In this document: positions 1-5,402 of the stretch, one piece after another | Layout: each line of letters starts with the position of its first letter | How positions within the stretch are numbered: the stretch's first letter is position 1 | Notes under the pieces: generated by a model | Database searches by the model: none | What the model saw: the letters and a program-made list of their open reading frames with translations, nothing else | What the model was told of the DNA's origin: nothing | Source of the DNA: a virus | DNA length: 5,402 nt | IMG/VR virus record: IMGVR_UViG_3300038683_000076 | Location: 1-5,402 of that record | Direction: 5' to 3' (one strand) | Program-made: the position numbers and the translations under genes

Positions 1-17
1 GTTTCCCAGTCACGATC
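1..17 (+). other. Non-biological sequence: random-amplification (SISPA / round A-B) primer B, GTTTCCCAGTCACGATC
   Basis: Bases 1-17 read GTTTCCCAGTCACGATC, identical to the fixed part of the widely used random-PCR primer A (GTTTCCCAGTCACGATC-N9) / primer B. The exact reverse complement closes the window at 5386-5402. Confidence 0.9.
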
Positions 18-2852: not shown

Positions 2853-3755
2853 CTAATCTTCACTATAAAAAGCGCCGTTAGGCAAGATAACGAGCCCGTT
2901 AGGGTCGTAAGCCATCTTTGGCGCTGGCTCTCCGTATACCTTTTTTATTCTTTCTTTCTTTTTTATATTTCTTCTCTCTTCTTCATATTTCTTTAACTCC
3001 CAATTTTTTTCGTTATTTCCGTATCCTTGTCTTTTATTTATTATTCTAGCTTCTTTTAATGCTCTTTGATAATCTTTTTCATTATCTCCATCTATTTCTT
3101 TTCCTAGCACATATCTTTTATTTTTATCCAATTTTTCTAACCATAATTTTTCTTTTTCTTCTTCACTATATATTTTGTTTCTGTAATATATTGGTAGTGC
3201 TAATTCTAGTCCCTCTCTCGTTTTATACGTTTCTCTTGTTTTATTCTTATTATATCGGTTTCTTTTACTATTCTTAGTCTCAACATATTTTTTCCCGATT
3301 CCTTGGCTTGCAAATATTTTTCCATTATATTCCTTATGATATTTATCTATTTTATTAACATATTTTACTATATAATTTATTGTCTTATTATTTACATACT
3401 CTCCTATATATACTGCTCCGTATTTCCATATTTTTTCAATATCTTCTTTTTCTTTTGTCCATACTATTCCATGCATATGCACTCTTTCTGTATTTTGGTG
3501 TCCTAGTTCTGTTACTAACCAGTGTCTTATGGTTTTTTTATATTTTTTACGCCACCTTTCTGTATATCTTCTTACTGCTATTCGGCATACTTCATTATCA
3601 AGGTTATATCCCGTTAATTCTGTGTTTTCTTTTTCTAGTTTTGTTAATTCTGTGTCACTAAATGTCAATGTCACGAATTGTGCATTTTTATTATGTTTTA
3701 GATCCTCTGTTAATCTTACTTGCCATTGCCTGGCTTTCTGTTTTTTGCATTCCAT
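2853..3755 (-). CDS. VP4: Replication initiation protein (Microviridae VP4 / phiX174 A-like HUH endonuclease), the uninterrupted 300-aa part. The true gene very likely extends to 3877 across a frame change.
   Basis: The rolling-circle Rep motifs appear in order: motif 1 FVTLTF, motif 2 (HUH) VHMHGIVW, motif 3 YIVKYVNK, with two Tyr spaced as in phiX174 A (YVAKYVNK). The same frame is open upstream of the Met at 3755 and there encodes VPVGCGKC, part of the conserved Cys cluster. The ATG at 3755 is therefore probably not the real start. Confidence 0.95.
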   Translation of the reverse strand: MECKKQKARQWQVRLTEDLKHNKNAQFVTLTFSDTELTKLEKENTELTGYNLDNEVCRIAVRRYTERWRKKYKKTIRHWLVTELGHQNTERVHMHGIVWTKEKEDIEKIWKYGAVYIGEYVNNKTINYIVKYVNKIDKYHKEYNGKIFASQGIGKKYVETKNSKRNRYNKNKTRETYKTREGLELALPIYYRNKIYSEEEKEKLWLEKLDKNKRYVLGKEIDGDNEKDYQRALKEARIINKRQGYGNNEKNWELKKYEEERRNIKKKERIKKVYGEPAPKMAYDPNGLVILPNGAFYSED

Positions 3756-3804
3756 ACATTTTCCACACCCTACTGGTACATATAGTACTCTTTGGTCTTT
3801 AACA

Positions 3805-3819
3805 GGGGGTATTACCCCC
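3805..3819. other. GC stem-loop (ggggg-tatta-ccccc) embedded in the Rep 5' region, overlapping the G7/C7 homopolymer
   Basis: Plus-strand 3805-3809 ggggg pairs with 3815-3819 ccccc around the loop tatta. An extra t-a pair is possible, giving a 3-nt loop. It is the only run of consecutive G:C pairs of this kind in an otherwise very AT-rich stretch. Confidence 0.6.
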
Positions 3820-3877
3820 CCATTTTTTTTGTTTCCATGTACTTCCTGTTTTTTATTATTTTAGGATATAAACACAT
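3812..3877 (-). CDS. VP4: 5' segment of the Rep (VP4) gene in a different frame: 21 codons plus TAA, ending in the G7 run
   Basis: An ATG at 3877..3875 directly abuts the VP2 stop (TAAATG). My translation is MCLYPKIIKNRKYMETKKMGG, then TAA (3814..3812). As I recall, MCL-P--IKN--Y is the typical N-terminus of microvirus VP4 proteins. One extra G in the run at 3815-3821, or a -1 slip, joins it to the 300-aa Rep frame. Confidence 0.8.
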   Translation of the reverse strand: MCLYPKIIKNRKYMETKKMGG

Positions 3878-4858
3878 TTATTTAAATGTTATCATTTTCA
3901 TGTAGTCTCCTCCTAGTCCCATTATGTCTCCTATTACTTTAGTTATTGATTTATGCCACATTTCTTTATTTTTCTGACTTATATTTAATTTTCCTAGTTC
4001 TTGAGTTACTGCTACGCTTAATTCTTTTGTCCATGCGTTTTGTTGCATTATATCTGTATTTTTTAGTATGTTATTAAATGCAGCTTCGTAGTTTTCTATA
4101 TCTTTTTGTGTTAGTTCTGTTCCTGTTTCTTTTGATAATGTATTCGCTTTTATTTCTAGTGTTTTTGCAAATTCTTGGTTTAACCAATTTTCATAATTAT
4201 CCTCAAACCGATTATTTTCATTTTTTAATTTTCTTGCTGTTTCTCCTATTATTTCTAAGTTATCATTAAAACTCTCTTTTGCAGTTTCATAGCTTAACTG
4301 TTCTGTTAATCTTTGTAGTTTATTAATTTTTGCTTTTTCTTGTGCACTATCTGTTTCTGCTTTTAACGTTTCATATAACTGCCCTAAGTTTTTTGTTTCT
4401 GCGTCTTTTTTATTTAGATCACCCGATTTTAACCCTGTATCTGTTTTTATGTTTTCTGTTTCTGCTTTCATTCTATCTAATTGTGCTGCTGCCATTAGTC
4501 CTTCTATACCCATTGTTTTCGCTTTTGGTGCTTGTCCACTTGCTGCACTTCCTCCTGTTTGGCTTCCTGTGGTTGTTCCTCCTCCACCTTTCATACCATA
4601 CATTAAGGCTGGGTTCAATCCTGCTTCTTTCATGTGTGCCATTTGATTCCCATAGTTTGTATAGTCCCACATAGCTTTTTGCAATCCATGTCCTTGTTCG
4701 TTTAACGCTTTTTGATTTTTATGTTGCATATCCATTAAATTCTGCGTTCTTTGGTATTCTTGATTTCCTGTTATTAGGTTTTCTATTATTCCTAGTCCTG
4801 CGTTTCCTGCGCTTGACGCTATATCCATGAAATTAAACCCTTGTTCATCTTCTCCCAT
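3878..4858 (-). CDS. VP2: Minor capsid / DNA pilot protein (Microviridae VP2, phiX174 H analogue)
   Basis: A 326-aa ORF with the characteristic block MWDYTNYGNQMAHMKEAGLNPALMYGMKGGGGTTTGSQTGG, followed by a long charged helical or coiled-coil-like region (KAETENIK...KAKINKLQRLTEQL...). Its position between a small ORF and Rep fits gut microvirus architecture. The start overlaps the ORF63 stop (TAATG at 4860..4856). Confidence 0.9.
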   Translation of the reverse strand: MGEDEQGFNFMDIASSAGNAGLGIIENLITGNQEYQRTQNLMDMQHKNQKALNEQGHGLQKAMWDYTNYGNQMAHMKEAGLNPALMYGMKGGGGTTTGSQTGGSAASGQAPKAKTMGIEGLMAAAQLDRMKAETENIKTDTGLKSGDLNKKDAETKNLGQLYETLKAETDSAQEKAKINKLQRLTEQLSYETAKESFNDNLEIIGETARKLKNENNRFEDNYENWLNQEFAKTLEIKANTLSKETGTELTQKDIENYEAAFNNILKNTDIMQQNAWTKELSVAVTQELGKLNISQKNKEMWHKSITKVIGDIMGLGGDYMKMITFK

Positions 4859-5134: not shown

Positions 5135-5151
5135 AGGGGAATAGATCCCCT
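5135..5151 (-). terminator. Candidate intrinsic terminator or structural hairpin after the junction-spanning ORF
   Basis: The stem is agggga (5135-5140) / tcccct (5146-5151) with the 5-nt loop ataga. On the coding strand it starts 10 nt after the TAA at 5164..5162 and is followed by AACTTTTTAAA. On the plus strand it is followed by a longer T tract (ttc then t9), so it has a bidirectional terminator-like shape. Confidence 0.35.
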
Positions 5152-5385: not shown

Positions 5386-5402
5386 GATCGTGACTGGGAA
5401 AC
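5386..5402 (-). other. Non-biological sequence: same amplification primer, reverse-complemented at the other contig end
   Basis: Bases 5386-5402 (gatcgtgactgggaaac) are the perfect reverse complement of bases 1-17. A primer at both ends of an amplicon or contig is expected for single-primer amplification. Confidence 0.9.

Follow-up and report, generated by a model that had tools for sequence, protein, structure and literature searches.

The break in the replication initiation gene (rep, VP4) of this microvirus is very probably an artefact, in which a run of nine adenines (A9) has been written as eight (A8), whilst the adjacent run of seven guanines (G7) is correct and the gene is read without recoding. 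The A8 reflects an undercalled homopolymer, or a minority variant at the most; no programmed frameshift is involved. As a candidate for recoding the split is void, and the annotation should be a Rep of 341 aa beginning at 3877, with the missing A put back. The window referred to throughout is the whole stretch of DNA that was analysed, 5,402 nucleotides in length.

The rep gene in the window

All of the large open reading frames of the window are on the minus strand, in the order VP1-VP2-VP4. Reading the ORFs of the window places VP2 at 4858..3878 (minus strand), with the Rep ATG following its stop directly. The frame from that ATG (3877..3875) is a 21-codon ORF, MCLYPKIIKNRKYMETKKMGG, that closes at the TAA at 3814..3812 (minus strand). 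The annotated Rep ORF of 300 aa runs from the ATG at 3755 to 2853 on the same strand, and its frame is open 5' of this ATG, reading ...NKKNGGVIPPVKDQRVLYVPVGCGKC up to the Met. These coordinates and reading frames, which were put forward in the original prediction, were all verified on the minus strand. The features around the break are as follows, with the bases given in the numbering of the window.

3880..3878, minus strand: VP2 stop TAA, adjoining the Rep ATG at 3877..3875 without a gap
3824..3877, minus strand: Rep codons 1-18, MCLYPKIIKNRKYMETKK, in the frame of the ATG at 3877..3875; matches residues 1-18 of all relatives and is identical in the same-virus assemblies L114-L118
3823..3830, minus strand: A8 run, the probable site of the missing base; A9 in five same-virus assemblies
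3815..3821, minus strand: G7 run, of correct length; Gly20, Gly21 and the first base of Val22, and 5' arm of a predicted stem-loop
3812..3814, minus strand: TAA closing the 21-codon ORF, which is probably artefactual; in what would be the true frame, bases within GTA ATA (Val22-Ile23)
3801..3824, minus strand: predicted stem-loop AAUGGGGGG-GUAAUA-CCCCCUGUU, overlapping Rep codons 19-26 (N-G-G-V-I-P-P-V)
2853..3823, minus strand: remainder of rep, codons 19-341 and stop, in the frame of the 300-aa ORF; codon 19 (AAT) also takes base 3824 once the A is restored

The G7 at 3821..3815 (minus strand; C7 at 3815-3821 on the plus strand) lies within the overlap of the two open frames and is the sole run of G or C of six or more in the window, which has a G+C content of 32.8%. 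Such a run is expected 0.20 times by chance and was found at least once in 27 of 200 dinucleotide-preserving shuffles. It is not the only homopolymer at the break, as the A8 (3830..3823) is one base 5' of the G7, where both frames are also open, and the sense strand of the window reads GGAAAC-A8-T-G7-TAATACCCCC.

Relatives place the missing base in the A run

Relatives were collected by tblastn of the fused protein against GenBank phages, which gave 1328 microvirus records, and by protein-guided scans that gave 33 loci in IMG/VR and 80 loci in metagenome contigs; about 98 loci from the scans contain the Rep N-terminus, and 81 distinct sequences were used for counts. The best GenBank matches align from residue 1 and are annotated as VP4 or as a replication initiator. 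Rep is one uninterrupted ORF across the site in all of the ~98 loci with the N-terminus, and is split in none of them. The proposal that the 21-codon ORF and the stretch 5' of Met-3755 form the true N-terminus of Rep is thus borne out, with the relatives and phrog_942 aligning from residue 1. Relatives without this N-terminal region had been named as what would speak against it, and every relative matches from residue 1.

The family motif across the 81 distinct sequences is K-K-N-G-G-[V/N]-I-P-P, with Asn19 invariant (81/81). The Rep frame of the window reads NKKNGGVIPP through the G7 without any repair, and the upstream frame agrees with the closest relatives through M-E-T-K-K. As the upstream frame fits through METKK and the Rep frame fits from NKKNGGV, the changeover between frames lies inside the A run. 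The codons ACA AAA AAA AAT (T-K-K-N) require A9, where the window has A8; an in-frame A9 is found in three of the 81 relatives (L027, L075, L084). Restoring the A9 gives the family consensus, whereas lengthening the G run to G8 puts a Met at the invariant Asn19.

It had been proposed that the error was in the G7 run, and this does not hold, since G7 is in frame in 13 of the 81 relatives (AAY GGG GGG GTN) and is present in all five other assemblies that cover the site, the base being missing from the A run. Relatives that have Gly-Gly-Val carry exactly G7. The alignment to relatives that the original prediction called for was run; the Rep genes proved uninterrupted, with an in-frame G7 in those 13 relatives. 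The repaired protein with KKMGG that it drew is at odds with the KKNGG found in 81/81 relatives, and its length of 342 aa for an additional G is incorrect, as both a G8 and a -1 slip yield the same 341-aa ...KKMGGV... protein. The 342-aa 'MGGGV' form is a miscount, since the G7 already includes the G of the ATG.

The alternative of a base lost from GGAAAC (A3 to A4, giving MENKKN) was also considered and rejected, as the closest relatives have METKKN and the same-virus assemblies have A9 with GGAAAC unchanged. As a separate observation, the MENKKN placement agrees with the wider family, in which 66 of the 81 sequences have Asn16. The choice of AAA AAA for Lys-Lys is not above the usage in the genome, so the A run itself is without sign of selection. 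More generally, where two homopolymers are adjacent, the overlap of frames alone cannot identify the faulty run, and alignment to relatives can.

Among GenBank phages, megablast with the whole window gave no match, nor did a scan of IMG/VR for exact patterns surrounding the site, and an exact look-up of the 300-aa product found no such gene in an index of 153 billion genes.

Other assemblies of the same virus

Further assemblies of the same virus were found by exact-sequence look-up of the VP1 and VP2 proteins of the window.

L114: ENA, biosample SAMN03945062
L115/L116: ENA, biosample SAMN03945061
L117: JGI 3300038754
L118: JGI 3300038533
L119: Logan assembly of SRR2135735
L120: Logan assembly of SRR2135736

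Their nucleotide identity to the window is 99.9-100%, and they come from at least two biosamples. All five of the other assemblies covering the site read GGAAAC-A9-T-G7-TAATACC, where the window has A8, although these probably have reads or samples in common with the window and should be regarded as independent pipelines and not as fully independent observations. Rep is split in none of the five. The protein obtained by restoring the A9, which was predicted beforehand from the family alignment, is the same at every residue as the 341-aa ORF of L114, L115 and L117. The JGI gene call is a Rep of 341 aa that starts one base past the VP2 stop, and the ENA gene call, of 328 aa, is consistent with translation from Met14 of the 341-aa ORF. 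Of the Logan contigs, L120 ends within the A run and L119 has the primer GTTTCCCAGTCACGATC fused directly after A9-TGG. The literature, when searched by run and sample accession, yielded nothing of relevance.

Between the window and L114-L119 there are three indels in total, all in poly-A runs, the other two being A13/A12 at 143-155 and A11/A10 at 2837-2847. Indels are thus confined to the lengths of homopolymers, and the gene is intact in the other assemblies. A homopolymer length error, which the original prediction had favoured as the explanation, is upheld by the A8 of the window against A9 in five assemblies, with the run at fault being a different one. Its report of primer artefacts was also confirmed, the primer being present at both ends.

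1..17, plus strand: amplification primer GTTTCCCAGTCACGATC, with its reverse complement at 5386-5402

We take this to be the 'primer B' that is used in Round A/B random amplification. Next to the primer, positions 18 to ~57 of the plus strand are unmatched in the other assemblies, and this non-matching end of the window is probably chimeric. The ends of the window do not overlap, and the unit genome is ~5357 nt, as taken from L114. The primer at both ends of the window, together with the non-matching end, indicates that the assembly is imperfect elsewhere too. Frameshifts that split genes in assemblies are described as common by those who have curated microvirus genomes (PMC9239249).

Explanations for the split gene

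The most likely cause of the split is a homopolymer length error in random-primer amplification, sequencing or assembly. The intact 341-aa VP4/Rep would start at the ATG at 3877, right behind the VP2 stop, and the loss of one A from the A9 (3830..3823) would put codons 1-18 in a different frame from the remainder. The upstream frame would then pass the G7, which would itself be correct and code for Gly-Gly-Val, and meet the TAA, with gene callers defaulting to Met42, at 3755 inside the gene. There is no need for recoding, whether by the ribosome or in transcription.

It is conceivable, if improbable, that the A8 is a real variant in the population that arose by replication slippage on the A9, being carried as a defective passenger or partly rescued by slippage. 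For a rescue, RNA polymerase could slip on the A run, or the ribosome could slip by -1 on A_AAA_AAA, and either route would yield the exact consensus ...TKKNGGV... protein. Runs of nine A or T are sites of slippage for bacterial RNA polymerase, at which transcripts gain nucleotides (PMC5009743), and (AC)A_AAA_AAA is a formal X_XXY_YYZ heptamer in the zero frame. The break of L120 inside the run would fit heterogeneity of length among reads, and the length of poly-A varies among assemblies at two further sites. Set against this, the other assemblies have A9 (5/5), none of the ~98 relatives is split, and in E. coli A_AAA_AAA shifts far less readily than A_AAA_AAG (PMC5009743). The hairpin follows the A heptamer after a gap of only 2 nt. 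Stimulators of -1 frameshifting lie about 5-9 nt downstream. For slippage in transcription the A run is present, but the two halves of the gene are in frame in every other sequence.

The two readings that rest on the G run fare far worse, and both can be considered almost certainly wrong. An undercall of the G run from a true G8, with the product ...KKMGGVIPP..., does restore a 341-aa ORF, and homopolymer errors do exist in the assembly of the window; it is contradicted by G7 in 5/5 assemblies of the same virus, by a Met in place of the Asn of 81/81 relatives and by the relatives with Gly-Gly-Val having exactly G7. For programmed -1 ribosomal frameshifting on G_GGG_GGG before a zero-frame TAA to control the synthesis of Rep, the heptamer and the adjoining stop exist in the window as written, and in thymidine kinase mutants of herpesvirus a run of G7 sustains frameshifting at a low level (PMC5009743). 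Both slippery heptamers, G_GGG_GGG at 3821..3815 and A_AAA_AAA at 3830..3824, are in the zero frame in the A8 version of the sequence only, and with A9, as in the genome, the G run falls in frame as Gly-Gly-Val and the TAA out of frame. The split is conserved nowhere (0/5 assemblies, 0/~98 relatives), the product has a Met at the invariant Asn19, and the G heptamer is inside the stem of the hairpin, which leaves it without a downstream stimulator. The -1 frameshift that the original prediction had offered falls away, as the relatives and the assemblies of the same virus are uninterrupted and there is nothing to recode. An undercall of the poly-A run is hence the reading adopted here.

The Rep protein

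With the A restored, Rep matches PF23343 (REP_ORF2-G2P) with 44.1 bits against a cut-off of 27.8, and phrog_942, 'replication initiation protein', with E = 2e-32 over residues 1-301. The motifs that it contains are as follows.

3747..3767, minus strand: CGKCMEC, Cys cluster, residues 38-44; CG[KR]C[MI]EC in relatives
3660..3677, minus strand: FVTLTF, residues 68-73, inside the PF23343 match (residues 67-176); presumably rolling-circle Rep motif I of HUH endonucleases
3459..3479, minus strand: HMHGIVW, residues 134-140, inside the PF23343 match; taken to be the HUH motif (HMH 134-136)
3351..3374, minus strand: YIVKYVNK, residues 169-176, inside the PF23343 match (YIVKY 169-173); presumably the two-tyrosine catalytic motif of phiX174 gpA type, with catalysis predicted

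Met-3755, which was annotated as the start, is Met42 of the full protein and falls within CGKCMEC. The Cys cluster as a whole is Cys2 … C38-x2-C41-x2-C44, and Cys2 is encoded within codons 1-18. Identity of Rep to the annotated VP4 of GenBank microviruses is 45-62%, with 62% the maximum among GenBank phage records, and the closest different strain (L001/L034) is 87% identical in nucleotides and 96% in amino acids. The 697-aa VP1 matches PF02305 (Phage_F) with 32.2 bits against a cut-off of 25. To judge from its sequence, the gene is an ordinary, if divergent, microvirus VP4/Rep of the HUH rolling-circle initiator type, with the profile match, the HUH and tyrosine motifs, an F-type capsid and a genome context on one strand all being found.

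A stem-loop within the 5' end of rep

The G run is able to pair with a C5 run 6 nt downstream, with a G5:C5 core in which 3819..3815 pairs with 3809..3805, and the RNA fold has an energy of -14.9 kcal/mol. Folded by itself with DNA parameters, the hairpin has little stability (-6.1 kcal/mol, z = -0.8), so the fold of a single sequence is no evidence and the argument rests on comparative tests. As the codons of Gly (GGN) and Pro (CCN) are inherently complementary, pairing was tested beyond what the protein requires.

Elsewhere in the window GGG makes up 15% of Gly codons and CCC none of the 31 Pro codons, and elsewhere in the rep genes of relatives the values are 13% for GGG and 8% for CCC. At the site of the stem-loop GGG is used for 43/59 and 48/72 of the Gly codons (~70%) and CCC for 36/81 and 28/44 of the Pro codons (44-64%). 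When codons 18-27 of the 81 relatives were resampled synonymously, the mean minimum free energy was -11.7 kcal/mol in the real sequences compared to -3.9 kcal/mol in the resamples, with p<=0.05 in 70% of the 81 relatives, and in <=25% of them for every other 10-codon window of rep. Covariation across 76 sequences was 0.277 compared to 0.144 in shuffles, a value that 0 of 500 shuffles reached and that is above all slid registers, although the sequences are phylogenetically related and the shuffle statistics overstate their independence.

Base 3 of the Asn19 codon is paired to base 1 of codon 26 (C-G in 39, U-A in 17). The selection seen at the 5' end of rep appears to act on codons, as the stem-loop is kept despite amino-acid changes, with Pro25 to Ala accompanied by a compensating GGC (GGC…GCC) and Pro25 to Ser by a compensating GGA (GGA…TCC). 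Wobble pairs in the 53 relatives that bear the hairpin comprise 34 G·T on the sense strand compared to 9 A·C, with seven of the nine A·C at the loop-closing pair. This excess of G·T assigns the structure to the sense strand, as mRNA or packaged ssDNA, in preference to the antisense. A consensus scan had flagged the plus-strand hairpin and T8 as an intrinsic terminator in antisense, which was set aside as the main reading because the wobble asymmetry favours the sense strand and all of the genes are on the other strand.

Taking the compensatory pairing together with stability that exceeds the requirement of the protein, the comparison of sequences indicates that this is a conserved cis-acting stem-loop. 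It is absent from more distant relatives, such as the human-gut clade (L029-L032, L090-L096), and its loop bases vary at synonymous positions (AATATT, GTAATA, ATAATA, GTCATC…). A search of Rfam gave no match to the stem-loop at E<=1, and in the literature searched there was no hairpin origin from a microvirus or gokushovirus, nor such an element in microviruses other than the Bullavirinae.

The G7 would then be no product of chance and no hotspot of error, but the 5' arm of a stem-loop which selection has kept on the sense strand in the first 80 nt of rep in this clade of aquatic microviruses. It is possible, although rather doubtful, that the stem-loop is a cis-acting replication element. By analogy with the origin of phiX174 inside gene A it could be a site of Rep recognition or nicking, or a priming signal for the complementary strand; it may instead be an element that acts at the level of mRNA. 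The variable sequence of the loop would speak mildly against a fixed nick motif. To our knowledge replication origins are unmapped in most microvirus lineages, and for this reason the stem-loop is possibly worth following up.

Comparison with known systems

The Rep of the window resembles the VP4 of Microviridae, that is Rep of the phiX174 gpA type, in its profile matches, in FVTLTF, HMH and YxxxY and in the VP1-VP2-VP4 order. Once the A9 is restored it shows nothing unusual, and what sets it apart is divergence only, with a maximum identity of 62% and no nucleotide match among GenBank phages. The window can be seen as an example of the frameshifts known from microvirus metagenome-assembled genomes, with a homopolymer difference of 1 nt splitting a gene; curators of such genomes report 'multiple instances' of split genes, which were patched with Ns (PMC9239249).

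There is some likeness to programmed -1 frameshifting, as in E. coli dnaX and IS911, in the formal slippery heptamer and the nearby hairpin of the window, and to transcriptional slippage at A runs, as in IS elements, Shigella and endosymbionts, in the long A run. Unlike these systems, there is no split in the real genome or in relatives, the spacing of the hairpin is wrong and two products are unsupported. The thymidine kinase of herpes simplex, where a G7 is subject to a 'savior' indel and low-level compensatory frameshifting, is similar in that a G7 of a viral gene adjoins a break in frame (PMC5009743). The G7 of the window differs in being without an indel, the indel being in the neighbouring A run and most likely technical.

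The origin of phiX174 is inside gene A, and stem-loop origins are found in CRESS-DNA viruses and rolling-circle plasmids. A GC stem on the sense strand with an AT-rich loop inside rep would be an arrangement comparable to such rolling-circle origins in or near rep. The origins of CRESS-DNA viruses carry an invariant nonanucleotide, whereas in the clade to which the window belongs the loop varies at synonymous sites.

A conserved stem-loop within rep

The replication gene (rep) of this microvirus carries a GC-rich structure early in its reading frame, beside the poly-A run.

3801-3824, minus strand: GC stem-loop in Rep codons 19-26, with G7/C5 arms and an AT-rich loop

The stem-loop, considered at the equivalent place in the relatives' loci (L001-L112) as well as in the window, is upheld by rare GGG/CCC codons. 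Compensatory changes preserve the pairing, among them amino-acid changes of Pro to Ala or Ser, with the wobble bias being that of the sense strand, and within rep it is only at the stem-loop segment that stability exceeds that of synonymous resamples. As to its role, the stem-loop may act in cis in replication, or it may be an mRNA element.

In roughly one third of the relatives AAG is found at Lys17 or Lys18 of Rep. The share of AAG among Lys codons is only about 10% in the window's three large ORFs. Its use at codons 17-18 may reflect mild selection to interrupt the A8/A9 run.

Homopolymer length and breakage in the assemblies

The junction of poly-A and hairpin is also where two Logan contigs of the same virus end. 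The end of L120 (SRR2135736) falls within the Rep A run, and that of L119 (SRR2135735) is the amplification primer joined directly after A9-TGG, therefore breakage or priming recurs at this junction in these libraries, which fits with read-level heterogeneity or polymerase trouble there.

Differences in length were found at two further poly-A/T tracts, both outside the large ORFs and therefore without effect on coding.

143-155: A13 on the minus strand, A12 in L114 (ENA) and L118 (JGI), a 1-base difference
2837-2847: A11 on the minus strand, A10 in L115 (ENA), a 1-base difference

These two tracts show that homopolymer length is untrustworthy in these assemblies. As for single-base differences, at 874 it is L114 alone of the other assemblies that deviates, with a minus-strand G against A in the window, and at 58, adjoining the divergent window end, all six other assemblies have A against G in the window.

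The window end and the unit genome

That end (18 to about 57, plus strand), which adjoins the random-amplification primer at 1-17, has no match in the other same-virus assemblies or in L001, the closest different strain; these read …AAAGAATAGTAAGCAATAAAGAACCGATAACA… at that place and then rejoin the opposite end of the window. It looks chimeric or mis-primed. The window ends share no terminal overlap and the window lacks about 26 nt of the circle, the unit genome being 5357 nt (from L114), and because of this and the divergent end a 112-aa gene that crosses the junction is corrupted in the window.

Directly after the stop of this junction-spanning gene and an A9 run there is an intergenic hairpin.

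5135-5151, minus strand: hairpin AGGGGA-TCTAT-TCCCCT, then AACTTTTT on the coding strand

This hairpin resembles a terminator on either strand, and a plausible role for it is that of main transcription terminator. In L001 the equivalent place carries a related GGGGGT-AATT-CCCC.
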